A stretch of DNA of 64,000 nt, taken from assembly GCF_964355755.1 (NCBI RefSeq), contig NC_092673.1, forward strand, positions 21,883,648 through 21,947,647, written 5' to 3'. Source of the stretch: Antedon mediterranea. Taxonomy: Eukaryota; Animalia; Echinodermata. The notes under the pieces were generated by a model. The model did not search any database and was not told where the DNA came from. It saw only the letters and a list, made by a program, of their open reading frames with translations. The translations under genes were made by a program, and so were the position numbers. How positions within the stretch are numbered: the first letter of the stretch is position 1; every line of letters begins with the position of its first letter. Positions 1,555 to 50,000 of this stretch are shown here, in pieces.

Positions 1555-4500
1555 ATGTCAAAGTCTCATATACTGCCCTCAAGGGCAAATCAAAGTTCTG
1601 CAGCGGACGAGCAGTATGTCAAACCGTCTTTAGAGAACAAACGAGAAGATTGGAGGAAAGCGAAAGAATTGGAAGAAGCGAGAAAAGCTGGAACTGCTCC
1701 TGCTCTTGTGGATGAAGAGGGAAAGTATGACCTTTTTTAGCTATAATATTTTATTGAATACTCTGTAAATAATAACATGATGCATGTAAGAGGTTGTATA
1801 GAGAAAAGTAAAATGATATGAGACTAACATTTTATTTGAGATATCACTTGATAATCAATGAAATATTGGTTACTTTTATTTACTTTTTCTATGGCCGTGA
1901 TTAACAACTTTATTACATCTACAAAATAACCTATTCAAAGTCTTATTTAGTTAATCTTCATTTTTCATGTTTTTTGGGGACAATACATTTGTAACTGGTG
2001 TACCTCTTCAGTACAAGACTGTTCTCCCAGAGAGCCTATTAATAAATGATTATATTACATAGCCTATGTAAATACGCGAACGTGATTGGTTGAAACTGCA
2101 TCACATGACTACCGCTGCGAGGATCGTAAATCGTATATATCCTCGAGAACGATGATATTGACTGTGTAATTTTCGCGTAATAATCGTGTCCCCTGTTATT
2201 AATCATATAAATTCTCGAGTACGATGATATTGACTGTGTAATTTTCGTGTGCAACACTCGAGTTTGCCGATAAATAAACAAAAGTCATCTACTCGATCTT
2301 GAACTCGGGTGGAATTGTCACTCCATCGCAAGACAACGTTTCATCCGCTGGGCCACGGAATTTGCTTGAAGAAAATAATCTTCTAAACTATTTAAGCTAT
2401 GCATACATAGCGCCCTCATTTGTTATAAGTCCACCCTAAATGTGATGAAACACCGTTTATGATTGGTCAATACTCACGGTAGTAACCTAGTAACTAGTAC
2501 GCGCTGAACATCCGGTGATTCGGCTCCTCGAAGATCGAGAAGACGACGAATTGTTTATTCGGCCTACCTGAATATAATATTATTATTAATAGGCTTATTG
2601 ATGGAAATTCTTCTGTTAATTTAAACGACCTAGGCCTAAGTGAATATTTTATTGCCAAGGAATCATTAATTAGTAATTATCTGTATATTATTCTTCGCAA
2701 GGTAAGGTGTCTAAGCAGTACAATACAATAAGGAGGCCTAGGCCCTAGCTAGCCTAGCTTCACCCAACCCAGCAGACTTGTTCTTGGCTATATAATGTAA
2801 CAGATATTGCCTTTTATATCGGTTAAATATAAGATTTGACATCCCCTCGAGAATGATATTAAGTTCTCGGGGAATATATATTTCCCTCAGCTGGCGCTTC
2901 GGGAAATATATATTCTCTCGAACTTAATATCATTCCCTCGGGGATGTCAAATCTTATATTTAACCTCTAAGCAGTCAATATCTGTATAATAGTAAAGTTT
3001 AACTTTCTTATTTTCAGAGATATTAATCCACATATTCCTCAGTACATATCAACAGTACCATGGTATGTTGGTGTTGATCACCCGACCTTAAAACATCAAC
3101 GTGTACAAGATGAGAAAAAGAAGGTTTTCAGTGGTATTGACCAGTGGTACAAAAAGGGTGTTAAAGAGGTAATCATAAAAAAGTATGAAAATCTAGATTT
3201 GATCCAGACAGATTAATTTATATTAGAATATTGTTTTTATGTACACAGAATGCTACTGTAGTATGAATATGGTGTAACCTAAAATGGGCATATACCTTTC
3301 TTCACTACAATTCATTACAGTATAAGGTATACTTAGCAGATAAAACTAAAGTTTAAAACTTTACATTTCAGGGATCAATAGCAACAAAATTTAGGAAAGG
3401 CGCTTGTACAAATTGTGGAGCTATTACCCACAAGAAAAAGGATTGCTTAGAGGTAGGTTATGTTACATATTGTTACCATTATAACCAAAATGTAGTGTTA
3501 AGTTAAATCTCTCTCTACATAAGATTAATTTAATCAATGTTATGTGCACAACATTTCTATAAGCTTTTATGACATGAAATGCGTTTTTAGTTTTACAAAT
3601 ATGAAGTATGTATTGATTTACTGTACAATTAGTGATGGTTCCAGATTGTTTTTTAAATGGGGTTAATGTCCTATCTTTTACATTGTGTTTTCTACAATTT
3701 ATTGGAGGCCGGCTAAGCCTGAACTTGAATCCGACAATATGTGTGTGTTTCTTAGAATTTGTACAAGTATGAATGAGCATTCCCACTTAAACTTTTACTA
3801 TGTACTGTAAAAAATTACTGTGTATATTTTGTCTCTTACAGAGACCAAGAAGAGTTGGCGCCAAATTTACAAGTAGCCAAATTGCACCCGATGAGCATGA
3901 ACAACCCAATTTGGATTTTGACTACGCTAGCAAACGTGATCGATGGAATGGCTACGACGAAGAAGACTACGATGATGTTATCAAGGAATTTGCCAAAATT
4001 GAAGAGGTATAAAAACGTAATTTTTTATATAAAGATAGAAATCATCAATCAAAACAAGTAACTGAATGTTACATATATTATTGAGGCTATATAAGACTGT
4101 TAAGGTGTGCAGAAATATGAAATTTAAAAAGTTAAAAGTTAAACCTTTTAAAGACAGCGAGCAGATTTGATTCAGTTTTTACTCCTCAGGCTCTGTCTAC
4201 ACTATTAAACGTTATGTGACAAAAATATATGATGTGCCCATATATGGACATGATGATGTCATATCACTACCATATTTGGGTATATCACTACCATATCTGT
4301 GCACATTACACTTTTGTTTGGTAGTTTAGACAGAGCTTCAGAGCAATTTTCAACATTCTAATATATGGTAATTTTTTAAGCTGGGTTGTTATGTGTTATG
4401 GCTTAATTTTTCCTTGCTAAAGGTTTAGTAATAATAGAAAATATTGTTATTTTGTCACAGGCAAAAAAAGAACTAAAAGCTGCTCAACTTGAGGATGAAA

Positions 4501-7500
4501 TGATGATTGAGAAACAAACCAAAGAAAAAGAAAAGGTGAATATATTTAGAATTAAACACCAATGAATGTTAAGGCAGGTGCGCCGTTTACCATACCTAAA
4601 GAGCCAACAATAACGGCATGGGTTCGAGGCCAACTCGCTACTAGTTCGGTGGTGGAACAAGTTTTCTCGAATAAGGACTATAAACCGTAGGTCCAGTGTA
4701 CACAGTTATAACCTGTGTGCATGTTAAAGAACCCAATTCATCATTCGAGACGAGTAGGGGGTACTCCTGGTGAACTGGTTCACAAAAAATCCCTGTATCC
4801 GGGGGATTACCACCTATCTGATAGGACAGTGATTAATTTAGTATTGATAATCCTTGGCCACTTGTGCCTAAAAGGCATAAACTAAAAAAAAATAGAAAAG
4901 AATTGTAATTATATTAAAATAATCCATGAAAGAGACTATACACTATTGAAATAAGTCTGATAATGTGTACCTGAGTGCTAAGTCTCCCCTCCCGCTAAGG
5001 TGAAATTGCTCCTGATTGTTTTGAATACTGTACGAGAAAAAAAAATACTTGCACTGATGAAAGGCTAGTGTTGCCTGAAAGCTCTGCTACTTTTTCTGAC
5101 TGTTTTACTTATAGTTTTGCTTTAGCTTTTTGCTTATCTTATTTTCTATTTCCATTGATACACCCACAGCATTTCATTATTTTCAGTAATTGCCTTTGGA
5201 TATATTTATGCACTTATGAAGGGCTAGTGTTGCCCGAAAGCTCTGATAACTTTTCTGGCTGTTTACTTTATCGTTTTGATTTAGCTTTTCGCTTTTTTTT
5301 TTTTTTTTTGTATCGAGATCCAGCCACTGATACCCACAGCATTGTCAATTTTTTCAGTAATTTGCTTTTGGATTTATATATAGTGTATATATATATATCC
5401 AATCTGCAGACAGTACTGTTTCGATCTTAGTAGATCTCGTCAGTGCAGCTCAGGTTTCGAAATGAAATAAGCCGCAGAACTGGCACAATATATAGGCTGA
5501 GCCAGGTATGCGGGACATGGTACACTGATTATGAACACAAAGAGTGCACAAGTTCAACGAGCGTGCTTTGCAAAATGCTAATAGTATTCACAACAAAATG
5601 CACCGTTTCGAAATGAAGAGTGCTCTACAAAACAACATACTATATATGTATATATCAGAAAGTAGAGGAGCATAATATCCAATCTGCAGACAGTACTGTT
5701 TCGATCTTATTAGATCTCGTCAGTTCAGCTCAGGTTTCGAAATGAAATGTACCGCAGAACTGGCACAATATATAGGCTGAGCCAGGTATGCGGGACATGG
5801 TACACTGATTATGAACACCTATATATAAATATATGTGACAAATGTGTTTTTTTTTATTGAAATAAGCCTGATAGGATATAATGACATACAAACTGTTTCT
5901 GAAACTAATTTTATTTTGGTTAAAAGGGAGACAGTGACAATAGTGAAGATGAAGACAAGTATGCAGATGATTTTGACATGCCTGGTACAAACTTTGACAG
6001 CAAAAGGTTAGTTAATTCAAGTTACAGATTTCATTTTGACATGCCTGGTACAAACTTTGACCGCAAAAGGTTAGTTAATTCAAGTTACAGATTTCATTTT
6101 GACATGCCTGGTACAAACTTTGACAGCAAAAGGTTAGTTAATTCAAGTTACAGATTTCATTTTGACATGCCTGGTACAAACTTTGACAGCAAAAGGTTAG
6201 TTAATTCAAGTTACAGATTTCATTTTGACATGCCTGGTACAAACTTTGACAGCAAAAGGTTAGATAATTCAAGTTACAGATTTCATTTTGACATGCCTGG
6301 TACAAACTTTGACAGCAAAAGGTTAGTTAATTCAAGTTACAGATGTCACTTTGACATGCCTGGTACAAACTTTGACAGCAAAAGGTTAGTTAATTCAAGT
6401 TACAGATTTCATTTTGACATGCCTGGTACAAACTTTGACAGCAAAAAGTTAGTTAATTCAAGTTACAGATTTCACTTTGACATGCCTGGTACAAACTTTG
6501 ACAGCAAAAGGTTAGTTAATTCAAGTTACAGATTTCACTTTGACATGCCTGGTACAAACTTTGACAGCAAAAGGTTAGTTAATTCAAGTTACAGATTTCA
6601 TTTTGACATGCCTGGTACAAACTTTGACAGCAAAAGGTTAGTTAATTCAAGTTACAGATTTCATTTTGACATGCCTGGTACAAACTTTGACAGCAAAAGG
6701 TTAGTTAATTCAAGTTACAGATTTCATTTTGACATGCCTGGTACAAACTTTGACAGCAAAAGGTTAGATAATTCAAGTTACAGATTTCATTTTGACATGC
6801 CTGGTACAAACTTTGACAGCAAAAGGTTAGTTAATTCAAGTTACAGATTTCATTTTCACATGCCTGGTACAAACTTTGACAGCAAAAGGTTAGTTAATTC
6901 AAGTTACAGATTTCACTTTGACATGCCTGGTACAAACTTTGACAGCAAAAGGTTAGTTAATTCAAGTTACAGATTTCATTTTCACATGCCTGGTACAAAC
7001 TTTGACAGCAAAAGGTTAGTTAATTCAAGTTACAGATTTCATTTTCACATGCCTGGTACAAACTTTGACAGCAAAAGGTTAGTTAATTCAAGTTACAGAT
7101 TTCATTTTCACATGCCTGGTACAAACTTTGACAGCAAAAGGTTAGTTAATTCCAGTTACAGATTTCATTTTGACATGCCTGGTACAAACTTTGACAGCAA
7201 AAGGTTAGTTAATTCAAGTTACAGATTTCATTTTGACATGCCTGGTACAAACTTTGACAGCAAAAGGTTAGTTAATTCAAGTTACAGATTTCATTTTGAC
7301 ATGCCTGGTACAAACTTTGACAGCAAAAGGTTAGTTAATTCAAGTTACAGATTTCATTTTGACATGCCTGGTACAAACTTTGACAGCAAAAGGTTAGTTA
7401 ATTCAAGTTACAGATTTCATTTTGACATGCCTGGTACAAACTTTAACAGCAAAAGGTTAGTTAATTCAAGTTACAGATTTCATTTTGACATGCCTGGTAC

Positions 7501-10500
7501 AAACTTTGACAGCAAAAGGTTAGTTAATTCAAGTTACAGATTTCATTTTCACATGCCTGGTACAAACTTTGAAAGCAAAAGGTTAGTTAATTCAAGTTAC
7601 AGATTTCATTTTGACATGCCTGGTACAAACTTTGACAGCAAAAGGTTAGTTAATTCAAGTTACAGATTTCATTTTGACATGCCTGGTACAAACTTTGACA
7701 GCAAAAGGTTAGTTAATTCAAGTTACAGATTTCATTTTGACATGCCTGGTACAAACTTTGACAGCAAAAGGTTAGTTAATTCAAGTTACAGATTTCATTT
7801 TCACATGCCTGGTACAAACTTTGACAGCAAAAGGTTAGTTAATTCAAGTTACAGATTTCACTTTGACATGCCTGGTACAAACTCTAATAACCAAAACATG
7901 TACAGTAAATGATTCATCTTTTTCCTTTGGCTCTAGTTGAAGGCGTTTGTTGATAATAACAGCATTTTATTTATAATTTTAGACGTATTACAGTGAGAAA
8001 TCTGCGTATTCGTGAAGACACAGCCAAATATTTGTACAATTTAAACCCAAACTCTGCGTACTACGATCCGAAAACGAGATCAATGCGTGGAAATCCATTC
8101 AAAGACACCGGCAGGCATCCTAATGAGTAAGTCTAGCATTTATTCTGTTCTTACAATTTAGTTTCTTTTTGTTCATATCCTTACAGTTAAACTTTCTTTC
8201 AAGTTGTTCATATTGTAAATTGTTTTAACCATTGCTACTATCAATCCTAGGCTAACCAGATAACTTGTAGGTCTTGTACTCATCGGTCATTGTTAATTCA
8301 AAATCGTAATGAAGAATATACTGTTTAGGTTCACCCTCTATAAATAAAGTGAAATTAAAAAAAAAATAAATAAACTCAAAATAATATTTAATCATGTTGT
8401 GTTATATTTGATACAAGAAGGTGCAGATCATTATCAATAGAAAAACAATGTTAATTTCCTTGTTGTATGTTTCAGTTTAAAATATGCTGGTGAGAATTTT
8501 GTTCGCTCAAGCGGAGATACTGGAAAAATGGCCAATGCTCAATGTAAGTTCGCTTAGTGTGTCAAAGCTCTGTCTACACTATCAAACTAATTTGACAAAA
8601 AAAGTGTGATGTGCCCAAATATGGTACTAATATGCCCAATAAGGTAGCGATATGACATCATCATGTCCATATATGAGCACATCACATTTTTTTTGTCACA
8701 TAAAGTATGATAGTGTAGACAGAGCTTAAAGCACTTTTACAGAATACAAAAATAAATAAAAACTTATTTTGAGGCTTACAGTAGTAGCTAGTGAGAAAAT
8801 CATGATAATGAGTTCGGGCTAGGATTTGAACCAAACACATTGGGTTTGGTAACTTTAAAGATGTATTGTCCCGCTGAAAAAATAATTCTTAACAAAATTT
8901 TGTTGAATATTCAATTTTAATGTAACATAATAGTTATCCACTTTGACCAAAAATTGTATAAAAAAAAAAGTATTTAAATGAAAACACTGTAATTTAAAGC
9001 AAAAAATGGCCAAATTGGCTGCCAGCCAGTGGGTTTTTGTTGAATTGAACCATTTAATTTGTCAATTTATAGGTGAAAACATTTTTTTTCCTTTATTTTT
9101 TGTATGTAAGTAATTAACTTTATTAAAACTACAAAATAACATATTCAAAGTCTGATTTAATTAATTTTCATTTTTCATGTTTTTGGGGGACAATATATCT
9201 TTAAGAAAGCAGCCTATAGATTCCTATAAGTAACGAATATTCCTTGTGGGTATTTTGCCAAGCTACTATTTTTCCCCACTACAAATAAACTGAGGGCTTA
9301 TAGCAGTGTCAGTAGGGTTATTACACTATATTCATCTGCTTTGTATATTTCAGTATTTGCATGGGAGGCAACAGATAAGGGTACTGATGTACATTTACAA
9401 GCAGACCCGACCAAATTGGAATTGCTCAACCGTGAATTTGAAGTAAAGGCCGACGATTTTAAGAAAGGTCAAAAGAATAGCATCTTAGATAAGGTATATT
9501 ATTTTCATTTTTTGAGATTACTACATTGTAGTATCGTTTGTATATTTAATTGTTCAGACATAACAATTTACATGTGTAATGGTCGTGTGTAGTGTAAATT
9601 TGCTGTTTCAAAAACCCAACTCGTGAGGTGGATTTTTTAATTACACCTTAAATCGCAAGCTGATTAACCACAAGATAAGGAGCAATTTGACCATACTAGT
9701 GTAAAAAGAAGAATGAAATATTACCTTGGTGGATAATTTGAACGAACGATCACTGATTTATCTCTAAAGGTTACACATGTAATTGATTTTACGTGCGAAC
9801 ACAGCCTATGTCTCTGTTGTTGAATAATTCACAAACATAAGAATAATAGAATAAGAAAAGAAAGTTAATTGATTAAAATAATATTTTATTTTCGACACGA
9901 ATGAATAGTCACCAGCACCAGAAATGAGATTCTACCTCGCTTCATATTAGCAAGTTTTTGTGGTGGAAGGAAGAAAACGATAATTAAATCAAAAGATTAA
10001 TCTGCGTGTTTGTAGAAGCCCAGTGTACATCATCTTCATTATCTGCACTCTATTTGGTAGATTTGATATTTGACCTTCGTCTATATTTAATATTACTTAT
10101 TTTTTTACAGTATGGAGGACAAGAACACTTGGAAGCTCCTCCACAGCAACTGCTCATGGCACAGACGGTAAGTTCAATAACCACAGTGCTTCAGATTAAA
10201 TATTTAGCTGTCGGTCTAATTCTAAACTATCTTGAAAGTAGATAATTAAATTACTCTTAAATTTAAAATGTTAATTAACATTGTACACTACAGACTGTTT
10301 AATTAAAATGCTTCAGATTAGATATTTAGCTGTCGGTCTACTTCTAAATTAACCTGTGGACATGTGTTTATATATTGAAAGTATAATAACTAAATAGATG
10401 ATTCAAGTTAAAATTTCAACATTATATTGTACACTGCAGACTGTTTTATTAAATTGCTTCAGATTAGATATTTAGCTGTCGGTCTAATTCTAAACTATCC

Positions 10501-13500
10501 TGTAGACATATATATATTGAGAGTAGATAATGAAAAGGACTCAAATTTAAAATGTTAACATTATATTGTAGACTACACAATCATATGCTATACTTTAAAT
10601 TTCCAAATTGTCTTGAAGTACTGTGATTTGTTTTCTTGTATTTATAGGAAGATTATGTAGAATATTCAAGGCAGGGTAAAGTGATCAAAGGTCAGGAAAA
10701 AGCTGTGGCAAAATCAAAGTATGAAGAAGATGTGTATTTTAGTAATCATACAGTGAGTATAAACAAAAGAAATCTTCTATCATATCAAGTTCAATATTGA
10801 ATATCGAAACGTGGCAGGCTACTGGGCGCTTGACCTTTGACAAGGTCGCCTAAAATGTATAATTTAAAACTATGGTACTTAGTATTGTATATCTAAATTA
10901 ACTGTTTTTCTAACAAATATCAAAAGTCATGTCTCGGGTTCATTCTATGCTACATCAGAAATGTAATGAATGGATGGCTAGTTGGTGACAAGAACGTTAG
11001 TTGATCATACCCAGTACCGTTTTGATTTTATGATCATTCACATTAACAGCATAGTCATCCTAGTGGCAATGACAGCAATAGCTGCTATTATACTGAATAC
11101 ACTATCCAGAGGATAACTGTATGTGTAAAGCTCTGTCTACACTATCAAACTTTATATGACAAAAATATGTGATGTGCCCATATATGGACATGATTATGTC
11201 ATACCACTACCATATTTGAGCATATCACAACCATATTTGGGCATATCACAACCATATTTGGGCATATCACTAACATATTTAGGCACAGCATACTTTTTTT
11301 GTCAGACTAATTTGATAGTGTAGACAGAGCTTATCACTATAACAGTGCATACTTGGCTATGTTGATATATTCTTAAGTAAAAACAGCTGTAAATCTATTG
11401 ACAATTCTATGAGGCTGAATTACTTACTGTATACATTTTAAACCGAAATTGAATGGTAATGGTAAAACATCATCAAATTTTGTATTTAGTTTATATAGTA
11501 TAAGTTTTTTGTTTTGGTGTAAATATTGTATAAATTATTGAGTGAGATTAAACATTATTTATGGGATATACTCGGTTTGTATAATAATAATATTGTATAA
11601 ATTATTGAGTGAGATTACTCGGTTTGTATAATAATAATATTTTTTTAATTGAATATTACACTACAGACTGTGTGGGGTTCATTTTGGCATGAGGGCCGAT
11701 GGGGCTATCACTGTTGTCATTCATTTGTCAAGATGTCGTACTGCACAGGAGAAGTTGGTAAAACTAGCTTGGCGTCAAGTGGCGCCCTCTCTATGATGGG
11801 CCAGGACAGGTTAGAACAGATTGACGATGGCAAACAGAAATCATTAGTTGAAGTAAGATCACATTTATTTATTTTTTTTTATTAGTATTTATGTTCAACG
11901 ATTTATATCTTGCGGTAACATCATGTCATAAATCTTAAACTTTGTTTAACCAAACAATACATACAAGTATTATAGCAAGCATTGTAATACATGGAAATGT
12001 GTTTCATCTGTTGATATAAATGATGAAATTGATAAAATACTAATATATATTAAAGATGTATTGTGCCCCTGAAAAAATAATGTTTAATGTCATTTTTATA
12101 TTTCACATAATATTTATCCACAAAAAATGAATCGGAAAACATTTTTATTTTATATACCTGCAAAAAATGTAATTTAAAGCAAAAAATTGTCAAATTGGCT
12201 GCAAGCCAATGGGTTTTTGGTTAAATTTGACTATTTATTTTGTCATTTTACATTATTTTGGTTCGTTTTTTTTCTCTGAAAGTGATTAACTTTATCAAAA
12301 CTACAAAAGAACCTATTCAAAGTCTGATTTAATTATTAATCTTTATTTTTGGGGGACAATACATCTTTAATGTAATTTATCCATTAAATAATAAGAAGAT
12401 AGCTAAATGAGTTTTACCTTTTGTTGAAAATGATATATGTAATAATCAATAATAATTGTTTTTTGTTGTTGCTGTATTAGAGCATTTTTCAAAGCTTATT
12501 TATTAAATGGAGTTGTCATGTGATTGGTCTCACATTTGTTACTAGGAAACGGAAATGGTTTTGTACGTCATGATGAGCAAGTTATATAAAAAATCGTTAA
12601 ACTTTATGTAGAATGTGACGTTTATGGCAAATTATAAAATGATGGATTGATATGTTAAAAGTGGATGACCATAATACAAATATTGAGTATTTCTTTGTGA
12701 TAATTTCGAAGGATATTTAGATGTCAACTCATGGTAAAACTAAGAGTTTCTAATCTAACATTAAAATACAAATTGCCAATGCTAATTTTAATTTGAAATT
12801 AATTATCCTAAATGTTTATCATAGCAGTATTTTATTTCCCTTTCTATCTACTCTTTAATAATCTTATTAAAATGGCTTATAATTTTATGTACTTGGTGGT
12901 TCCTTTACAGCTTCAGCAAAAGATTATCTGTATACAGTGTGTAGAATAATAGGAATGACAAATAAAATATTTATACAGTAATATACACTAAAAGAAATGT
13001 TATGGGATATACTGACTGTATAATACAGTATAGCCCATTTCCACTCGTATCAATTATTATTTGTATAATACAGTATTATTATTATTATAAATGATACGAG
13101 TGGAAATATCAATATTATCTACATTCCAAGAATACAACTCCATAATTATTTGTTTTATAAGACATCTATTTTACTCAATGGTAAGAATACATTATAATAA
13201 ATTATATTGTTTACAATTCAAATTGCAGCAACACAAAGAAAAAATTCACACAGAAAAGACAGAAAGAAAAAGAAAGAAAAAGAAGAAACATAGCAAAAAG
13301 ACGGATGTAAAATCAAGTGAAGATGAAAGTAGTGAAGACGAAGAAGAAATAAAAAAGAAAAAATTAAAGAAGGTAAAAAGAATAGAACCATTTTATTTTG
13401 GAAAAGTAGGTTGGGAAAAATTCTCAAATGTTCTGTTTGTTCATAAAACGAAAAAAAATTTTTGTTTTTGTTTTGCATGGGTTTTAAATATATGTATATT

Positions 13501-13931
13501 TTAAATATAAATATACATTTATATTTTTTTAACATATTTTTTTCTTCTCATTTATGTTACAATGTTAAAATTAGTTGCAATAAATTGTCATTTGCTTATA
13601 CTGTATATACAAACAATAATTGATTTATTATTTCACATTTTTAAAAAATTAATTAAAATATAAGTAACAAAATGGCAGTGGTCATAATTCTATTGTGTTC
13701 AGGTAGAGAGGCTATAAACTTAAACGAAAACATCATTTTTTTCAGGCCTTGATAGCTGAGGTACTTAGACAGAAAGAAGCAGATAAGATTCTTGCAATGG
13801 ACGAGAGAAAGAGGACATATAATAGCATGCAAACGATGGGCCAGTACAAAGAACCAACAGAAGAGGAAATGGAGGCTTGGAGGCTGCTGAAGCAGCGGCA
13901 AGAAGACCCTATGGCACAATTTATTTCTTGA
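1555..13931 (+). CDS. SLU7: Pre-mRNA splicing factor SLU7 (second-step factor, zinc knuckle), 14 coding exons, 583 aa
   Basis: Exons 1555-1724, 3018-3168, 3372-3452, 3842-4006, 4461-4535, 5927-6006, 7983-8126, 8476-8543, 9354-9493, 10111-10167, 10648-10752, 11667-11852, 13229-13372, 13746-13931. All GT-AG and phase-compatible, total 1752 nt. Diagnostic motifs: [112 protein letters not shown]. Candidate polyA signal AATAAA at 14378. Confidence 0.97.
2048..2990. mobile_element. Non-autonomous DNA element with terminal ~185-bp foldback palindrome (class uncertain, possibly Crypton-like)
   Basis: 2800-2985 is an imperfect palindrome (CAGATATTG...AAGATTTGACATCCCC / GGGGATGTCAAATCTT...CAATATCTG). 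Both ends of the element recur, joined and inverted, at 48209-48437. Confidence 0.6.
4189..4338. mobile_element. MITE family A (PIF/Harbinger-like), TIR AGCTCTGTCTACACTATCAAAC
   Basis: Terminal inverted repeats plus internal ATATCACTACCATATTTGGGC repeats; ~14 related copies in the window, often flanked by TAA/TTA. Confidence 0.8.
4575..4890 (+). mobile_element. SINE with Deu/Nin-like central domain
   Basis: B-box-like GGGTTCGAGGCC, then AAACCGTAGGTCC...GTTAAAGAACCC...TTCGAGACGAGTAGGGGG...CCTGGTGAACTGG, resembling the DeuSINE conserved domain; A-rich tail. Related copies at 62420-62600 and, inverted, at 54700-54930. Confidence 0.65.
5051..5087 (+). ncRNA. Minimal type I hammerhead ribozyme (Penelope-like/retrozyme type), family 2 copy 1
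   Basis: GCA-CTGATGA-A-AGGC(tagtgtt)GCCT-GAA-AGCT-C-TGC: helix I GCA/TGC, intact CUGAUGA and GAAA core, palindromic AGCU helix III, predicted cleavage after C5084. Confidence 0.65.
5051..5385 (+). mobile_element. Tandem ~159-nt hammerhead-containing repeat (2 units)
   Basis: Units start at ~5051 and ~5210. The second ribozyme (5210-5245) has core CTTATGA and a compensatory helix II, GGGC/GCCC versus AGGC/GCCT. Ends in a (TA)n tract. Confidence 0.65.
5404..5448 (-). ncRNA. Type I hammerhead ribozyme, family 1 copy A (intact)
   Basis: Minus strand CTGCA-CTGACGA-GATCT(acta)AGATC-GAA-ACAGTACTGT-C-TGCAG: 5-bp helix I, 5-bp helix II, palindromic helix III, GUC triplet; cleavage between 5409 and 5408. 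Confidence 0.9.
5684..5728 (-). ncRNA. Type I hammerhead ribozyme, family 1 copy B
   Basis: Same core as 5404-5448, with loop AATA and one helix I mismatch (CTGAA/TGCAG); exactly 280 nt from copy A. Confidence 0.85.
5971..7883 (+). repeat. 63-bp tandem array (30 full units + partial) spanning the SLU7 exon 6/intron 6 junction
   Basis: Unit TTTTGACATGCCTGGTACAAACTTTGACAGCAAAAG|GTTAGTTAATTCAAGTTACAG|ATTTCA. ATG at 5978 and 7868 (1890 nt = 30 x 63); substitutions only, no indels. Confidence 0.98.
8566..8727. mobile_element. MITE family A copy
   Basis: AGCTCTGTCTACACTATCAAAC...GATAGTGTAGACAGAGCT, 22 nt downstream of the SLU7 exon 8 donor. Confidence 0.85.
8859..9200. mobile_element. MITE family B (Kolobok-like, TTAA TSD)
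   Basis: TTAA|AGATGTATTGTCCC...GGGGACAATATATCT|TTAA. Copies at 12054-12366, 40855-41144, 45726-46069; fragments at ~1860-1990 and ~14740-15067. Confidence 0.8.
10188..10575. repeat. Three ~120-150-bp tandem copies in SLU7 intron 10
   Basis: GCTTCAGATTA.ATATTTAGCTGTCGGTCTA.TTCTAAA recurs at ~10188, ~10310 and ~10456. Confidence 0.8.
11129..11331. mobile_element. MITE family A copy (extra internal 21-bp repeats)
   Basis: Both TIRs present; four CATATCAC.ACCATATTTG-type units. Confidence 0.85.
12054..12366. mobile_element. MITE family B copy (Kolobok-like)
   Basis: TTAA TSD on both sides, TIR AGATGTATTGT.CCCC / GGGGACAATACATCT. Confidence 0.8.
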
Positions 13932-26715: not shown

Positions 26716-26867
26716 AGCTCTGTACATCAAACTTTATGTGGAAAAAAAATGTGATGTACCATATATGAACATGATGATGTCATATCACTACCATATTTAA
26801 GCATATCACTACCATATTTGGGTACATCACACTTTTGTCATACTAGTTTGATAGTGTAGACAGAATT
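26716..26867. mobile_element. MITE family A copy
   Basis: Both TIRs (slightly deleted) and internal repeats. Confidence 0.8.
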
Positions 26868-32387: not shown

Positions 32388-33445
32388 TTAAACTTGTAAT
32401 TTTTTAAATTTATTGGAACATTTTCCTGGAGATGGGGCATAATACAGCTTAATATTATTCCATGGCTTAGCATTTTTATCCATCCAATTACATATTTCAA
32501 CTCCATGATGGTGGCACACAATTTGAATCAATGTGACCACATCAGCCTCAGCATTGTGAACATTTTCTGGTAGTTTTCCAAATGTTCTTTTATATATTTC
32601 TGCCAATTTATAAGACACCTTTCTCTTCTTGGAAGGACTGTGTTCATTGGACGTTGACGACATAACTGGCAATGTATTGTTGTTACTTGTGGGTGAAGAA
32701 CTGGAAGGTTTGCTCAAAATATCTGGTTTTCTGGTCTGGCTTCTAATTTATCATCAATGTCTTGAAATGCTATCAAGGAATCCACACAGAGTACGTCACA
32801 CGGCAGCGAACAATCAATGTAATTCAACTCAGTTTTAAGTAATGGGAAATCAAATCGTTCCCCATTGTGTGCGACTAGACATACAGGTTTTGTCTGTCTA
32901 TTAAGGAAGGCGTTGATACAATCTACAAGATTACTGTCAAAGCCTTTTTTCTCATTCTCCAGAAGAATCGAGTTATCTAGACCGGTCATATCACCTGAAT
33001 GTATTTGCTTGTTAGGGTATAAACACAGTGTCATCTTATCAACCACCCTCGGGATGACAGGAGGACTTGATGTGCTACTTGTTGAACCATTAATGCTTGA
33101 TCTGTGAACAGCTATCAAGCAAATCTCAGTAATTTTTGGTCTTTCACACGGGAGTAATGCAGATGACTCTAAATCCAAAAATACAAACGACTTAATTACA
33201 TTTACATCTCGTTCGATATCAAGCTGTTGCTTACTGGTACTAGCCCTGCTACACGATTTTTCGCTAGTAGGCATCGGCCGACAAGAGTAGGAGCTTTCAT
33301 CGCCGCCAGACCCGGCGTCGTCGTTCGAACTATCATCAATTGTTAATGCCCCTTCTACTACTAGGCCTAGCATCCGACGAGATCTAGGTGGTGGACTACC
33401 TAGGCCTAGAGAGTGAGACGCAGATTTATCTTTAATACCAAGCAT
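32388..33445 (-). pseudogene. TREX1: Intronless TREX1/TREX2-like DEDDh 3'-5' exonuclease with a -1 frameshift (pseudogene, null allele or assembly error)
   Basis: ORF 33445-32714 carries ExoI FVFLDLES, PRVVDKMTLC, ExoII CLVAHNGERFDFPLL and CVDSL. ORF 32717-32388 carries SYKLAEIY and ExoIII HNAEADVVTL. The frames overlap between ~32745 and 32714; one extra A in GAAAAC (32727-32730) would join them. Confidence 0.8.
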
Positions 33446-34896
33446 AGCGGGATCGTAACACTTAAATGTAAAGTCAGTCCTTAATTATAGGCAAAACATT
33501 AAATAGAATACGCCACTATCATCTGCTAGGCCCAGGGCGTAATAACGGTAGTCGAGTTTCCTCTCTTCTTTCTTTGAGTGAGTGAGTGAGCGAGTCGAGT
33601 CGAGTAAGTTGGTATTTTCCGCTTGATTGCACACACAAAAAACATGTCCTGGTGGTCCGTCCCCCCCCCCCCCCCTGGCGGCCTATTTAAGAAACGCCTA
33701 ACAGCGGTAACCACAACAAACAAACAAAGATGAGATTTGAGTTGGTTGTGTAAAATAAAATGCATTTTTGGAAAATTTCAGTAAATCTAAACAAGAAATA
33801 CTTCTTACAAAAAACGTCGCTTGGTTGTTGACGTAACAGTTTTAAAGATATTGACCTTAGCAATAATACTAAGTGACAGAAATCGAGTTAGTGGTCTAAA
33901 ATTGGCTTTAATATTATTTAGACATCATTTTTATTTAAATTATTTATTAATAAGCACATCATCCTTTACAGATTTATTTTTTCGCGCCGCGGCTCTAGCC
34001 AGCTATGTCCCAGGAGGACACATTCATTAATAAGCTGTTTCATAGCGGTAGCTTTAGTATCTAAGGCTGACAGTTTTGTGAATTTGGAAACTCGACTATA
34101 ATTTATAGGTAGCTGCTGGACCCAAAAAACGTCCGGGAGAAGAGAGTCTATATGAAAGCCTTTGCTGATAATACATATTATTGAGATGTAGACGGAAATC
34201 TGTAAAATCTTGTTTAATAAAATAACTTCGTTTTTGCTGTCAACCAGGCCGGTATTATAATAAGTCACTGTCAAATAATCATTCGATAATGGTCAAAACT
34301 TTATTTTGGCTCTGTCAACATAGGCCTAAAGGGAAGTATTTACAATGACTTTCTTTTTTATGACTGTCAATCTAGGTCAATGTTATAATAATACGCCGTC
34401 AGATATTAAATCATTGAAACAGTCCTGGTAAATTTTTGTTTGGTTATCAGATGCCGTGGGGTGGGGGGGGGGGGGGTAGGTCTAATCAATTATCGTCAGA
34501 AGGTGAACAATCAGTCTAGGTAGCAGCAGCAGATTATTAGGAACGCCTGCTCCATTAATTAATCCAGAAAAAGAAAAAGGTTTGTACATTATCTATTTGT
34601 TTATTAGCCTTCTCCTAGCACAATTATATTTTCTTTAAAAAAAGGTTTTATAAGTGGTGTCAACATTTATGATAGTAATGTCACAGTTCTGTGTCTGGAC
34701 GCAAGTTCATAGACCTACTAGTTATATTATTCATATTAACTGATACTTACTCTTCATTTACCGTAAAGTTCAGTTTTAATGAAATATATAATATAAATTG
34801 GCTTCGTAACAATTAATTAGTGTTGAAAAGGTTAGTTTTTTGGTGATAGGTGAAAATGGCATGTAACTTCGTAATCAATTTATTTTTTTTGTATAA

Positions 34897-36741: not shown

Positions 36742-36893
36742 AGCTCTGTCTATACTATCAAACTAAATATGATGTGCCCATATAATATAGACATGACGAT
36801 GTCATATCACTACGATATTCGGGCATATCACTACCATATTTGGGCACATCACACCTTTTTTGTTAAACTTGTTGGGACAGTGTAGACACAGAA
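36742..36893. mobile_element. MITE family A copy
   Basis: TTA|AGCTCTGTCTATACTATCAAAC start and internal repeats. Confidence 0.8.
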
Positions 36894-41000: not shown

Positions 41001-44000
41001 CTCTCCCCGACGAGAGGTAAACATTAGTTTTATTTTTGTTTTTTTTTCTACAGAAGTGAATAACTTTATTAAAACTGCAAAATGGCCTATTTAAAGTCTG
41101 ATTTTATTAATCTTCATTTTTCGTGTTTTGGGGACAATACATCTTTAAATAGGGTCAAATAACTTCTCTCGATCTAATTTAATCTAATTGATCATGTCAA
41201 GACATCACTTTTAAAACTTTTACAGGGTTGCTGGAAATTCTGCATATATTCTTGGGACATTAGCAGAACATCATGTTGGACAGACACGAGTATTGGCGCT
41301 CATCTATGGCCAACATGAACACAGCATCCTTGTTGATCTCTGTAACATGCTAGAATATGATGATTCTGAGTCCGTGATGAATGCAGCTGGTACCCTAGGC
41401 ACATTGGTAAGAAGGATTGAGATCATGATAAAAAGCGGGGCAGGGTTGGCATTTATCAATATTTGCTAATACTTTTGCTTAAGCTGAAATATTTAACTTA
41501 CGAACTTACAGTAAGCTTATTTATCAAGCAGAAAAATTGTCTTAAAAAAATGTTTACTTGGCATGTGTGAAAAATGGAACACTAGAGGGCAGAAAATTTT
41601 GTCTTAAGACGAAAGATCTTTGCTTACGTGTATACATTGGCTTTTTCTATTAGGGATGGCGGCGCTATAACGTTTTATCTTCACATTTTCACTCCCAACA
41701 AGAGAGGGTTCATTCTGGTTACTATGCTTTTTAAGATAGAGAAATAACACAAAAGTCAGAAATACATGAAAATCATTATCATATTAATCAAGGATTTAAG
41801 GCAAAGTTATAAAATTTGTTATGCTAAGCAAGTTTGATCAATCCGGCCCCTGGCAATGTTTGAAGTATTGTTGTATGTAAAAATTAAGCTAAATAAATTG
41901 CTAATAATAATTATAAATATTTTTATTATTTTAAATTTTATCTAATTCAATTTTAATTATTTGATAATGGTGAGCAATCAGACTTGTTGGTTATTTAGAA
42001 ATGAAAACAAATTCACCAAGTGCCACCGCAGCATTGGCTCTTGCGTGTAGTAAAACTATTAACATTATGATTATCACTGATCATAATCACTGTTGTTTAT
42101 AGCAACTATGGAATGTATATGATTACTTGATCTATAGTGTTTATTGACTTCAATGATTGTATCTGTTGACAAGTTACTAAAATTGTGGTAATTTGGTAGT
42201 TAATATTGCACAATATTTATTTAACCTTATTTTAAGTCAGAAATTTGTTCTGATAAAATTTAACAGTAGTATTACAGGTGATAAAAATATCAGAATAATA
42301 CTTTAATGATGTGCTTGAATAATATTAAGCTACTGTACCTATCCTATTTAGGTCCATAAGGCTCTGTCTATGTTATTAAAGTAGTTTGACAAAAAAAGTT
42401 TGATGTGCCTAAATATGGTAGTGATATGCCCAAATATGGTAGTGATATGACATCATCATGTCCATATATGGGTACATCACAATTGTTTGTAACATAAAAG
42501 TTTGGTAGTGCAGACAAAGCTTAAGGCTGCACATTTTCTTTGTCTCCAGTGAACACAGTCTTTGGCCAAAACTTTGCATTGTTCCAATATTCCCATCCCA
42601 ATGCCAATTCTCTCCCTTTCCACCGTCTATCCTAATATCAAGTGATCTTCCATCCACTGCTAAATGTGCAATTTGTTCAGTGTTTGATAGAAATATCCCT
42701 GATATTGTATTGCATACATTTACAGTTCAGGCTCAAATCTACCTATATTGCATACTTGATACCTATTGTTCAATCGACTTATAGCACCGGTACTATCCAA
42801 TGTTCAAAAGCACTTGATAAAGTTATACAGGAAATGTTTCTGTGTACAATTGTGTTTTAAGACGTAATTTGAAGATATTGATGTTTTGTGATGTCTTTAT
42901 GTTTACTAAAAAGCATTCTTATTGGTTTGGCCATTCTTAATAAAGATGATCATTTTTTATTTAAAGTTTTAACATTTTTCTTTTATATTTAATTTTCATT
43001 TCGATGATGATACACAGGCAGAGACAGCAGAGGGCCGAGCCTGGATGCTATCGGAACAATGCATGGACACAATGATTCACAGAGTAATGGCGTTACTAAC
43101 ATCTGAAAGCATGTGGACCGCAAGCAATGCTGCCCTCGTGTTGGCCAGGTTGTCTATTTCAGAAGAAGGTTGCCATCATTTACTTCATCATCAACAATCA
43201 CATCAACTTCTCACTCGGCTAATACAATCACTCGGTGTTGATGAAGCTGGTAAGTATACAGATCATGTATTTTTGCATTCGTTAATACACATCGGTATCA
43301 AAAAATATAATACAATATCAAGTGCAACCAAAAAGTTGAATTATGCCACTCATTTGAAATTGGTAAATGACAGAGTGTTTGGTGTGTTAATAAAAAATAT
43401 TGGTAAGATATGGTATGGGACTCTTGCCAAATCTGCTCGTGGTACTGTATGATCAAAATTTCCATATTTCTTCTCATTGCGAGTTGCATGTGGTTTAGGA
43501 AACCACTACCATGTTTCGGCACATCACACTTTTTTTTTCAAACTAGTTTGATAGTGTAGACAGAGCTTAAGACTGCTGAATGATTGTGTTTCATGTTGGT
43601 TCTTTGTGTTTTTCCATCCTGTTGTGCTTTAAATTCAATTTCTATTTGGTATACTAGGTACAGGCATGAATGCTGCATTCGCAGTTGGAAGAATTTGTGA
43701 CACAGAGGAAGGACGAGAGAAACTCATAAAACACCAAGATATTACAAAAATGGTAAATAGTTCTATCAGAGAAACTGATGCCTTATACTGTAACTGGGCA
43801 CATGACCTAGTGTGGTGGTAGGGTCATTTCACCCGTTTGTGTCAAGATCTATGTTTCTGAAAACGATTTTCTAGTCCATTTCGTGCTGTTATCTATCAAT
43901 TTTTGTTTTGGCCTTATGAATAGATTTAAAGACTCAAATTAACACCATGTTTAATATTAAATTTTAAACTTTTAGATTTCTGTTTTAACTGATATGTTGT

Positions 44001-47000
44001 CCAGTAAAGATCCTGGTTGCAGTAAGAACGCTTGTTTCGCAATAAGCTGCCTTGCTGGCAACGAGGAAGGGCATGCGCTACTGCTCAATCATCTGCGATG
44101 TGATATCATGCTGAGGCGTCTTGCGGAACAACTACACTCAACAGACCAAGAGACATCCTGGTTTGCTGCTATGTAAGTTACTATTAAAAAACATTGTTAA
44201 AGTAGTATAGAGTGGAGCTGTAGCTTGGTGATTTAGATGTTCAGCTACCGATTACAGGGTCCTGTGTTCAAATCCTGTCAGATTCTTTCTCATGACAGAA
44301 CAACTCCGCTCCCAAAGACTTTGTTTTGTTTGTAGAGCATCTTGTGTATACTATATGTTTGTCTTTGTGATTATTTAAGCCACTTTATTAGCTAATAGCC
44401 TTAACGGCTACATGTGGCTATCTGGCCCCTCCAGGAGACTTGTCTCCAACTGTCATAAAATAATTTAACAAAATAAAATAAACTTATATATCTCAGAAAT
44501 ACTGCCTAAGGTGGACACATCAGACTCATCCTACATACATACAAGATGAGTCCATTATATTGATTCCACTTTGAAAATGTAGACATACTTGATCATCAAC
44601 AATCACTTTTGTGAATAATCAAAGCATGTGTGTGCCGACAGCTTCCCCCAGTTGATATAAAGGGCACTTCCTTCACATGCTTTCACCTAAACCCCCACCG
44701 AAAATTCTTGCTGGAAAAGTCAAACGGTTGCATTTGAAAAAACAAAGGCTGTGTAGAATACTGTTACTTTCTGATGCTGCCAAGTACTAATTTTAAACTC
44801 GTCTATTCCTAAATCAGGAGAATCCTGACAATTGCCTACTTTGTAGGATTCCCACCTTAACTCTTTGACAACCCTGATAACAGTTTAGAAACCTGAGCAA
44901 TATACGTTTAAAGGTTCTGTAGAATCTCTATACTTGTTCTGAATTCATTCTGATATTTTCTGTTCTTTCAGGACCCTTCGAACACTTGCAAGTAAAAAGA
45001 AAGGTTGTTTAGTACTACGTGATCATGTAGTCATTGTACCTGCATTACAGGTATAGAGTCTATTTTTAGACAGCATTTGTTTTTTCTTGGTAGCTTGAAT
45101 AGCTCAATGCAGTATCACTCAATCAGGGATGTAATCTATGTAGCCATAGCCTGTACTTAGGGGAAGGATACTACAGAAACAAAATCTTACAACTTAAGTG
45201 TTTAAAAAAAGTACAGTATATAAATTCACACTCTACAAAGTTGCAATAGAACTCAAAACAAAGCTTTAATTTCAGTCAACTAAAGAATTCAGTATAGACT
45301 TCAATCGTCTTCACAATTACTCTTATAATCATAAAAATAATAAATAAAAAATAAAAAAAACTTGTTTTCTATAATGGGTAGAAAGACAAAATATTGACAT
45401 TGATGTTAGTAAACCAACCAGTGGTAGAAGACCTGGTTACATTTTGGAAAATCTTTTATTTCTTTACTTCAACAATATTTTTTTATAGGAAATTAATGGA
45501 GCAAGTGGAATTTCCAACGACCTTCAGGATGAAGTTGTTTTGACATTAGAGCTTTTGAAGAAACTTGACAAACCAAATCCACCAGTGCTGGAGGTCAAAG
45601 GTCCCAGGGAGCTTATGGTGACCTGGGATATAACAACACTCGAGAGTGGACTTGACATCATTTATATGCTTTACTTAGGTAAAAATAAAGTTTTACCTGA
45701 AACCTACCTGCATACAATCTTTAAAAGATGTATTGTCCCCCAAAAACCAAAGATTACCGTAATAAAATCGGACTTTGATTATATTATTTTGTAGTTTTAA
45801 TAAAGTTGATTACTTTCGTAGAAAAAAAAACAGAAAAAATATATGTTTTTACTTATAAAATGACAAAATGAATGGTTAAATTCAACGAAAATCCCATAGG
45901 CTGGCAACCAATTTGACCATTTTTTGCTTTAAATTATAGTTTTTTAGGTAAATACTTTTTTTTTTGGATCCAATTTTTGGTCAAAGTGAATAACTATCAT
46001 GTGACATTAAAATGGCATATTCAACAAAAATTGTTTTTATAATGATTTTTTCAGGGTGACAATACATCTTTAATTGCAGGAATATTTTTGTTGTCTTTCT
46101 TGTGAAACAAATGGTCAATATGACTATAACCTACCTCTATTTAGGGACCAGGACAATTTTTAGTGTGCCAAATAAATCCATATTAACTTTAAAAATTATT
46201 AAAAACATTTTTGACAGATAATACGGTGCTCTACAAAGGTGCTGAGACCAGCTTTTTGGCAACCAACCTCAAACCAAATACTTTATATAATCTACAATTG
46301 CAATTGAAGACAGAAGGTGATGAAAGTCAGCTGAGTGACCCTTTAGAGGTCACCATGGATCAATGTGGTAAAAAGTTCATTTTTATAACTGATGCCTTAG
46401 TCTCCCCCAACCTTAAGCTCTGTCTACACTATCAAACTTTATGTGAACTAAAATGTAATGAGCCCATTTATGGACATGTTGATGTCATATCACTACCATA
46501 TTTGGGCATATCACTACCATATTTGGGCACATTACACTTTTTTTTAAAAACTAGTTTGATAGTATAGACAGCATTAAAGATAAAATCACATCCAGTTTAT
46601 TTATACAAAATGCTAACAAGCAATTTTTATATTTTTTAAAGAAATATTATCATTCAATTTATATAAAATAAAAGGTCAACTTGTCTAAATTTTCTAGCTC
46701 TAGTGATCTAATCTAATAATTAAGTATTTTCTGAATTCATATTTTAAAATTAATAGTGAACTCGAGTGCCATATTTTGTACCATAGACTTTGTTTATGTA
46801 GAGCATCTTGTGTATATGTTTGTAGGGTAAACAGGATTGCCACCTTTGAGAAGGATAGTGAATGAATTAGCAATTTGCCTAAATATACAACCAAACAAAA
46901 CAAAAAATGATCACATGTTGTTGGTGGGCTTATACCTGAGACCAGGTTTATACTGGCTGGGCTTATACCCGCATCAGTATGGTACAATAAAATATTTGTA

Positions 47001-50000
47001 GCACTAAATTTGTGAATAATCATTCGAATTCACAATTTAATTTTCTTAAGAATGAATTATTAAATAGGTTCATAATTTTTTATACTAAAGCACCTGATGC
47101 CCCAGAAGATTTGCGAATCCTAGCGGTTTCAACATCACAGATCAGAATAGGCTGGTCACCCCCAGCAGCTGTTAATGGCGGGTTAAAAGGCTACATAGTT
47201 TATAATGGTAAACAGCAGATTGAATCCACTACAGAACTATGCAGTATACTCAGCTCTCTTGCGCCCTCTACAAAGTATGATATTTACGTAAGTATTGCGG
47301 TCGGAAATCAAACAAGCAAACTTCATCTTAACTATGAAATTGAAAAAAAAAAATTGAAAAACTATGAACTTTTTATGTTTTTACGTCTATGTTTGTGTAT
47401 CTTGTAGATTTGAAAAAACCCCAGATCCAAAATAACCTTGCACATTTTGCACATGATAAAGTCTATTCCATAAGACTGCTTTAATTTATAAAATCTCAGT
47501 TTTTCACTTAAGCACTTAACTATTTTGACTTAACCAAAAAGACTCATAAATATCAGCCCTCTTTTTTTATTATACCATGCTATTGATATACAACTTACTG
47601 TATATAAAGTATTTAATATAGAATATATTAAAATTAATATTTGTCATTACTATCCACATACAATCAAATTAAAAATATATATACTTGTCAAAGAGATTTT
47701 TTAAAATTTGTTGTTTTTCGCCATTTTTATGTGGAATATACTTTTTATTTTATAGGTGTGTGCCTTTAACCACAAAGGAAAAGGACATAAAGCCTGTATC
47801 TCAGCAGCTACCAGTGAGCTAGGTAGGCAGTATATTGCAAATCCCCAATGTCCTAATCTCTATCAAGAATGTTTTTTTTTCAGACATAAAATAAAGTGAT
47901 GAATATAACTTTTTTAAATGTATAATAGCTCATTTCCTGTAAGGAAGAATACATAAAAAGGTTAACCATGAGTCTAAGCTTTGTCTACACTATCAAACTA
48001 GTTTGAAAAAGTGTGATCTGCCCAAATATGGTAGTAATATGGTCAAATATGTTAGTGATATGACATCATCATGTGGGCACATCACATTTTTTGTCGCATA
48101 AAGTTTGATAGTGCAGACAGAGAATTACAAGGCTTTGCATAACTAAGCTCCTGTAGTCCACTCAATAATTCATAGTATTAGCAGAAACAAGCATACCACT
48201 GGCACTTACAGATATTGCCTGCTTAGAGGTAAAATATAAGATTTGACATCCCCAAGGGAATATTTTGCTCAAAGGCTGAAGGAAATATAATTCTTGAGAG
48301 CAAAATATTATTTCCCGAAAATTAATTAGTCAATATCATCATACTCAAGGAAATATACGATTTACGATCCTCGCAGCAGTAGTCATGTGATGTGATGGTT
48401 TCAACCAATCACGTTTACGTATTTACGTAATATAATTTTTTATTTACCATAAAATGTTTCTTCTCTGTCAAGGTGGTTATTTTTTTTCACTTGCTAAACT
48501 CTGTTTCTGTAATAAAGGTAAACATGCACCTGGCAAGCCAATACTGAATGTCAGAGGTCGTAATGAGATTCATCTAACATGGTCTCCACCCGAATCTCCT
48601 ATTGGTCGTTTGCACAAGTTTGAGATATCTATCAATGGAAAGGTAGTTTACTCGGGCACAGAGCTCTGCTTCACGGCTCGTAGGCTTGTGCCAAACACCG
48701 ATTACACATTCAAGGTAAACATTTTCATTTTGTATTCAAGGTTTGTATCAATCTAAATATATTAAAGAAATAATTAAATAGACTGTTACATAATATTTGT
48801 AATCTAATCTTGTTAATGCACCAATCAAGTCTTTAACCATTAAGCTGTCACGCTGATTAATGTAAATTGATCGGTATTAATATACAAATAATGAATGATT
48901 ATGAGATAGTGAGAATATTTCATGAATTAAAAAATGTACTGCTTTATTTTTAACGAAGCGGAGTCAAGTTAAAAGTAGAGAAATCAATTTTTCATTGAAA
49001 AAAATTTTTGTAAAAAACGTGGGTATATTGTAGGTGTACATCAATTGTACTGTATACAGTATACATATTTATGTCAAAACAAATCGAAATCTTTTTGAAA
49101 AAAATTTTAAACATTGTATTTTAAACTTCATTAAAGGTTATAGCAGTGACAAGTGAAGGCAGGTGTGAAAGTGAGCCTGCACGGAAGAAAACTCCTAAAG
49201 ATGAATGTAAGTGTAACTTTACATTATTAAGGGGACAGGCCCTTCATGCACTTGTCAATTATATGACCCGCTATACGACCCCTAGGAAATGTGCGTCATA
49301 CCTTTTGAATACCATGACGCACCCCTGTGTCAAAAAAGTGACTTACCTTCAGGTGACCATGATGCACCCATTTTGAAGCATTGAGACCATTGTTCATGAT
49401 ATGATGGGTGTTTGTTGATGTTGATTTTGTTTCTTTTAGTCACTCCTGCATCAATAATTATTTGTAAATGATACACCCATAACACACCTCTCTTGGGGGG
49501 TTGTATAGTGGGTCATACAATTGACAAGTGCATAATAGAGGTGTCTCCTGAATAATATAAGGGTGTCTTGTGAATAGATTTCCCAAATGAGGAGGAGGAG
49601 TTTTACTGTTATAAATTATTCATTTATATTACTGAGAATGATTCAATATTCAATATGTAGTAGGTCACTTGTTAAAATAGAAATGTTCTGGTTGCCTTTA
49701 ATATTGTGTTGAAGTTTGTTGTTTAATTATCATACATCAATATAATATTTTAAAAATCATGTTGTTTTTTACTGTAGATAATGTACAATCAACAGCTCCC
49801 ATATTCTTTAGCCATCCACACAAGATTACGGATCAAGATACAGGTACAATTTTTTTCTGCCATAATTATTTTGCATAAATAAATAAATCAGAATCCTTTA
49901 ATGTTTCCCCTAGATGAAGTATCATCATTAATTTTAGAATTGTATTATCTCTACTTTATTTTGTGATTTTGTTTCCTCTTTAAAGTAAGCAATTTAAAAA

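Follow-up and report, generated by a model that had tools for sequence, protein, structure and literature searches.

Minisatellites whose first unit lies across an exon-intron boundary are a described class (Borensztajn et al. 2006, PMC1557585), and the tandem array analyzed here, in intron 6 of the SLU7 gene of the echinoderm Antedon mediterranea, belongs to it. The array lies in a stretch of 64,000 nucleotides (contig NC_092673.1, positions 21,883,648 to 21,947,647 of the forward strand), which we call the window and whose own numbering is used throughout. Work on the class in human genes goes back to at least 2006. Intron 7 of human F7 contains a 37-bp variable number tandem repeat (VNTR) whose first unit spans the boundary, so that the real donor is trailed by identical copies of itself. 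Minigene tests of F7 showed that splicing goes to the most upstream donor, that the number of units is irrelevant and that in-frame later copies are unused; in F7, lamin B2 and PDGF the authentic (first) donor is the only one used (all PMC1557585). Long units across a donor are present in human lamin B2 (100 bp, 10-15 copies) and in intron 4 of PDGF (81 bp, a multiple of three, 16-18 copies). Closest in copy number are the 31-bp VNTR in intron 13 of human CBS, for which an allele table is available (PMC2630376), and the repeat in intron 2 of the interferon-inducible 6-16 gene, the two showing 15-25 donors and a long exonic part (PMC1557585). The boundary repeats of primate segmental duplications are likewise recent, and are either kept in or spliced out of mRNA (PMC2812944).

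The SLU7 array differs from each of these. It has 30 copies with 36 nt of exon in each unit and every donor in frame, against 5-9 copies and 4 nt of exon in F7 (PMC1557585), and its 63-bp unit keeps the frame that the 31 bp of CBS breaks. The lamin B2 and PDGF repeats are mammalian, and the passage that describes them mentions no ancestral seed state (PMC1557585). Many primate boundary repeats have transcripts supporting the repeat-retaining form (PMC2812944), whereas the contigs available for SLU7 leave the form ambiguous. Finally, the host gene encodes a splicing factor in an echinoderm, to which the first-donor preference of F7 is carried over by analogy. No paper on Antedon SLU7 was found in a literature search. 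We estimate a probability of about 75% that this is a minisatellite across the exon 6 donor of which mainly the first donor is used, the array being removed with the intron. The array is real and restricted to one lineage, being absent from a relative (organism B), and is probably a tolerated, recent neutral repeat rather than a regulatory switch. With thirty donors, identical save for three variants and all in frame, nature provides a clean test of whether first-donor preference extends beyond mammals, one in which nonsense-mediated decay does not filter the products.

The repeat and its host gene

Translation of 14 GT..AG-bounded exons, with 6006 joined to 7983, reproduced the NCBI SLU7-like model of A. 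mediterranea (P0004) letter for letter and ended in a stop; exon 7 is 100% identical to this protein. The Pfam Slu7 domain was detected in the gene product (PF11708, E 1.6e-103), preceded by a weak zf-CCHC_4 match, and human SLU7 (5xjc_Z) aligned over residues 17-584 (E 5.7e-219). The domain and the full-length match to a known SLU7 indicate that the predicted product is SLU7. Introns in the gene measure 203-1976 nt. NCBI gives a single isoform, in which donor 1 is used, and the 90% cluster of P0004 has one member. The relevant features are the following, with a slash marking the exon-intron boundary.

1555..13931, plus strand: coding span of SLU7, which comprises 14 coding exons for a protein of 583 aa (tblastn map, Pfam PF11708)
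5927..6006, plus strand: coding exon 6, 80 nt, with the authentic donor AAG/GTTAGT at its end; covered by organism B contigs without substitutions
5970..5993, plus strand: exonic copy of a 24-nt direct repeat, the likely left part of the seed; also present in organism B
5970..7883, plus strand: 63-bp minisatellite, 30.4 copies; the unit is the last 36 nt of exon 6 plus the first 27 nt of intron 6, and unit 1 spans the boundary
6070..7839, plus strand: 29 reiterated donors (6070+63k to 7834), comprising 26 identical 9-mers, two GTTAGA and one AAA/GT, all in frame with exon 7
7860..7883, plus strand: partial last unit, which is the intronic copy of the 24-nt direct repeat and the likely right part of the seed; no donor follows it, and the organism B copy lies 68 nt downstream of the exonic one
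7884..7982, plus strand: unique 3' tail of intron 6, with the authentic acceptor and, at 7910-7912, an in-frame TGA; compared with organism B it shows 8 substitutions in 99 nt plus 4 indels
7983..8126, plus strand: coding exon 7, where the RITVRNLR motif begins; in an RNA contig, 7983 is joined to a donor and 8476 to 8126, each joint being GT..AG

Tandem Repeats Finder returned 24 rows for the window, one large array among them: at 5970-7883, with period 63, 30.4 copies, 98% matches and 0% indels. Together with a unit-by-unit cut this bore out the original prediction on the composition of the unit, the 30 donors at 6007+63k (last at 7834), the variants GTTAGA at 6259 and 6763 and AAA/GT at 6448, and the TGA. 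Unit 1 thus lies across the authentic boundary and the exact donor is reiterated in the intron. Fourteen of the 30 units are identical to unit 1, and there are 18 differences in 1890 nt. Several variants recur among neighboring units (G5C in 15, 17, 18, 19, 26 and 30; T1C in 7, 9, 10, 16 and 31; T42A in 5 and 13), and 7860-7883 equals exon bases 5970-5993 except at position 7861. At 7 of 9 positions the array donors agree with the consensus, which puts them level with the strongest real donors in SLU7. No other match to the first 23 nt of the unit was detected in the window with up to 4 mismatches, and RNA folding of 5927-6222 was no better than that of shuffled sequences (z 0.80).

The presence of the array was supported by sequencing data from two individuals. 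Six of ten sequencing runs (X1, X5, X6, X8, X9 and X10) were compared with the window. In DNA run X1 the unit was collapsed to a 60-nt contig with a depth of 5600 against 267 for the unique flank, a ratio of 21 where the assembly predicts 24; contig depth is a rough guide only. Run X8, from another sample and study of A. mediterranea, gave an 86-nt contig that makes one full repeat turn and so implies at least two units in a second individual. An assembly artefact or a private allele might still be considered since run X1 possibly derives from the assembly's own sample S1 and no single record spans the array. The depth ratio, the nine distinct unit variants at patterned positions and the repeat loop in an individual from another study make this explanation extremely improbable.

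Origin of the array and its open frame

In organism B, run X5 yielded one 670-nt contig (depth 210.5) that covers 5886-6056 (record positions 21-202, no substitutions) and 7798-8351 (record positions 112-670, 24 substitutions); the coordinates of the two parts within the record are exactly those of an unbroken sequence. A 681-nt contig from run X6, a second organism B sample for which the left flank was compared, aligned in the same way and continued with an identical stretch of 468 letters. In organism B, exon 6 and its single donor are thus followed by 27+5 nt of intron, then by the 24-nt exon-end copy, the tail and finally exon 7. Intron 6 is about 154 nt long there, contains neither array nor second donor, and has its two 24-nt copies at a spacing of 68 nt, which is not a multiple of three. 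Copy number is 30 in A. mediterranea, where contigs collapse the array in both individuals, and none in organism B. Run X9 gave no cover on exon 7.

The two organisms differ by 4.3%, whereas the units differ from unit 1 by 0.95%. The low divergence of the units and the variants shared by neighbors fit a stepwise expansion after the split. The 24-nt copies may have misaligned, by which the intervening 63 nt would be duplicated; the arrangement in organism B would represent the state preceding this event. Repeated unequal exchange or slippage could then have expanded the array, as the recurrence of variants in neighboring units suggests. The array is thus likely recent and grown from a 24-base direct repeat, and the direction of change is likely expansion in A. 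mediterranea rather than collapse in organism B. An ancestral-looking seed surviving in a close relative would show that arrays can start from a direct repeat of 24 nt.

Read in the frame of exon 6, the array is open until the TGA at 7910-7912. The original prediction had emphasized that there was no stop or indel in 1.9 kb. The frame is indeed open and indels are at 0%, but this reflects a single event copied 30 times, with a chance of about 0.17 (1/3 for a unit length that is a multiple of three, times 0.52 for nine stop-free intronic codons in SLU7 intron sequence). Among the nine distinct unit variants, seven are non-synonymous and none creates a stop, compared with 148 non-synonymous changes among 189 possible ones and a chance of 0.68 of no stop in nine. 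The variants change amino acids as under no selection and show no constraint at the protein level, and the peptide of the unit shows no sign of selection. The open frame is probably due to chance and at most a reason why leaky use would be tolerated.

The earlier expectation that any donor joined to exon 7 keeps SLU7 in frame was confirmed for all 30 donors; the frame is also kept by four of the five acceptor-like AGs in a unit, and the stop is met only on full retention. If a later donor were used, the last unit would restore a 12-residue motif, but its distance from the upstream KYAD grows. Across 121 fetched SLU7 proteins with 119 motif occurrences, this spacing measures 17 residues in 106 occurrences and 19 in two, and was not found in 11; a doubled motif occurs in none of the 121. 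A DMPG pattern matched 74 of the 119 occurrences only. As the spacing is nearly invariant in this part of SLU7, isoforms in which it is lengthened may be harmful. SLU7 binds Prp8 in an extended form (10.1101/496695), and the main texts of the SLU7 structure papers searched, in the extracts seen, contained no residue-level statement on the stretch where the insertion would fall. When longer proteins were searched with a query made of exon 6 and two units, 4 of 1193 candidates were hit, each matching at most 43% of the query, so that no repeat-bearing protein was found, which is a weak blank. Pfam hits of the 662-aa read-through frame to SusE, DUF4465 and ectoine synthase were rejected as repeat artefacts, as no stretch passes alone.

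Further SLU7-like sequences were encountered at several points. A 1306-nt contig of run X1 with a depth of 262, which is single-copy-like, matches exon 7 at 7995-8106 with 16 differences in 112 nt, and seven of the ten listed are at third-codon positions; it may be the SLU7 of an associated organism or a further SLU7-like copy in this genome. In run X6 (sample S3 of organism B), depth is raised by about 53 along roughly 32 nt around the exon 6 donor (5982-6013), possibly because a further SLU7-like locus has an intron at this position. In Cordylochernes scorpioides, P0002 (1013 aa) and P0003 (1143 aa) each contain two SLU7 copies head to tail, which are probably tandem paralogues fused by annotation.

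Donor and acceptor use

Splicing was examined in run X8, which was taken as RNA by guess; none of the runs is recorded as RNA. Its 1069-nt contig (depth 93) is spliced at two GT..AG joints, one linking a donor with 7983 and the other 8126 with 8476, and its loose end reads as exon 9. In the same run the repeat loop reaches a depth of 74.5 and the shared node, as calculated from binned depths, one of about 141, which corresponds to about 0.8 repeat turns per mRNA. The idea in the original prediction of an isoform ladder, taken as even use of the 30 donors, was not borne out, since simulated word counts then gave a loop of 717 with exon 7 at 70, about ten times the depth observed, and NCBI has one isoform, with donor 1. 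An even ladder over 30 donors does not fit the RNA, provided that the array of the X8 individual is similar. By contrast, a simulated mixture of 95% donor 1 and 5% whole intron gave 141.5 for the node and 74.4 for the loop, which fits the observed depths.

These depths would be explained if the spliceosome mainly picks the first donor and the whole array leaves with the intron, as may be expected if the most upstream of identical donors wins, as in human F7. Counted entirely as unspliced intron, the repeat RNA amounts to 3.6-5% of SLU7 RNA. The RNA/DNA depth ratio per repeat copy is 0.015, close to the 0.013 and 0.008 for a dispersed repeat in intron 7 and far from the 0.35 for exon 7; these ratios are rough, as depths were summed and come from different individuals. 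The evidence leans toward repeat RNA being background from unspliced intron. A recent neutral minisatellite, the last option offered in the original prediction, agrees with the absence from organism B, the unconstrained variants and the single donor-1 isoform.

Several points weigh against this reading. The X8 contig keeps 30 nt before the joint that are common to all units, so it cannot tell donor 1 from donors 2-3. The same depths are also obtained if all transcripts use donor 2, if half use donor 1 and half donor 3, or if 5% use donor 30. With 5% whole intron the intron tail should have a depth of 3.5, yet X8 showed no contig there. Human CBS and 6-16 are known to use two additional donors (PMC1557585); the SLU7 contigs fit either donor 1 or donors 2-3. 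As to the origin of the array, run X10 of organism C has no cover on exon 6, which leaves the direction of change unrooted and collapse in organism B possible. Furthermore, the spacing of 63 in A. mediterranea against 68 in organism B leaves room for selection that let only an in-frame array spread.

Some of these points would be accommodated if donors 2-3 served a sizeable share of transcripts, much as later donors do in human CBS and 6-16, giving in-frame products with 21 or 42 extra residues that escape nonsense-mediated decay and have no regulatory role. The loop depth of 74.5 beside 93 for the spliced contig, the simulation with donors 1 and 3, the empty intron tail and the donors themselves, identical and as good as the best of the gene, are in line with such leakage. 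Since NCBI has one isoform, the protein search came out blank (weak as it was), 5% unspliced intron fits equally well and the near-invariant spacing suggests that the longer isoforms may be harmful, we regard it as rather unlikely. In X8, no cover was found on the unique intron stretches 7902-7979, 8136-8291, 8396-8473 and 5832-5926, but gaps of this kind carry no weight as evidence, because short links of low depth tend to be removed by assemblers.

The original prediction also suggested that the array could act as a U1 decoy: the 29 extra donors would bind U1, slow the removal of intron 6 and lower SLU7 output according to copy number. Repeat words are present in RNA, and a reference title cited in PMC2630376 ties the CBS VNTR to reduced CBS activity. 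However, repeat RNA is at most 3.6-5% of SLU7 RNA if all of it is unspliced, the ratio resembles that of another intronic repeat, and in F7 the addition or removal of units left splicing unchanged (PMC1557585). Such a braking effect is therefore highly unlikely.

Besides donors, each unit contains five AGs, four of which keep the frame. Acceptor strength was scored by crude base composition, trained on the 13 acceptors of SLU7 with leave-one-out for the real sites. For the ACAG at unit position 57 the score is 2.88, which exceeds that of five of the 13 real acceptors and is reached by only 11 of 382 decoy AGs, and in this respect the acceptor-like site proposed earlier holds up. It has another AG 4 nt upstream, however, whereas this AG-free zone is 18-58 nt in all 13 real acceptors. 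The other four AGs score -1.3 to -7.5. The one at the AG/GT boundary (unit position 36) scores -7.3 and has 3 T in 17 nt versus 6-12 in real acceptors, so a recursive splicing ratchet point, an AG/GT after a good pyrimidine tract, is not apparent from the sequence. The proposed division of each unit into a 21-nt micro-intron and a 42-nt mini-exon is arithmetically right, but 21 nt is a tenth of the shortest SLU7 intron (203 nt), and no joint inside the array, that of the micro-intron included, was found in the X8 contigs, which drop rare forms. Validated human ultra-short introns measure 37-65 nt (PMC4463651) and introns near 25 nt are reported from some ciliates (PMC5014332). Longer routes to the AG of a later unit are geometrically possible.

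Acceptor use is central to the most far-reaching proposal of the original prediction, an autoregulatory splice-site sensor in which the AG-rich units would serve as SLU7-dependent acceptors, for 42-nt mini-exons or for stepwise recursive removal, and tie the SLU7 level to its own splicing. The description of SLU7 as a second-step factor involved in 3' splice-site selection is supported by the literature (10.1101/496695, PMC9984181), and the five AGs, four in frame, with an ACAG scoring 2.88 would offer sites for such a role. The short AG-free zone, the score of -7.3 at the AG/GT boundary, the lack of in-array joints in RNA contigs and the absence of the array from both samples of the 4% diverged relative argue against it. 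In addition, the in-frame products would give no decay, while most of the autoregulation papers listed deal with unproductive splicing. The donor has already been chosen when SLU7 acts, so it would not select among donors. Autoregulatory cassettes are typically conserved in related species. Here the 30 donors and four of five acceptors are in frame, so that their use would not target the mRNA to decay, and organism B has neither array nor second donor. Among the 15 of 205 matches listed in a literature search, judged by titles or the first lines of abstracts, none reported SLU7 regulating itself. The sensor thus finds no support in these data, and we consider it very unlikely.

A more speculative variant, to which we attach a similarly slight chance, is that the repeat signal in RNA reflects real use of downstream donors or in-array acceptors, yielding in-frame, decay-proof isoforms with a lengthened linker whose share responds to SLU7 activity; the 68-nt seed of organism B would be the state just before. 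If downstream donors were used in a SLU7-sensitive manner, a splicing feedback loop would have been caught at birth.

Other features of the window

Intron 5 contains two copies of a 150-nt element (about 5390-5530 and 5670-5820) and intron 7 a short element at 8316-8370. For both, hundreds of contigs from other places in A. mediterranea and organism B gave matches, so they are dispersed repeats. A 21-bp tandem unit recurs at 11200-11285, 26784-26830, 36803-36852, 42401-42449, 46486-46529 and 48023-48062, and sits inside a dispersed element that is also present in introns 4, 8 and 11. Outside SLU7, a low-complexity, charged open frame of 463 codons at 51929-53320 on the plus strand belongs to no Pfam family and is probably a large exon. 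A TREX1/TREX2-like 3' exonuclease open frame lies on the minus strand at 32714-33484; its top match in the PDB has E 3e-37, and Pfam gave none at 0.01. At 46193-48756 on the plus strand, at least three frames encode fibronectin type III domains and are probably exons of one gene.

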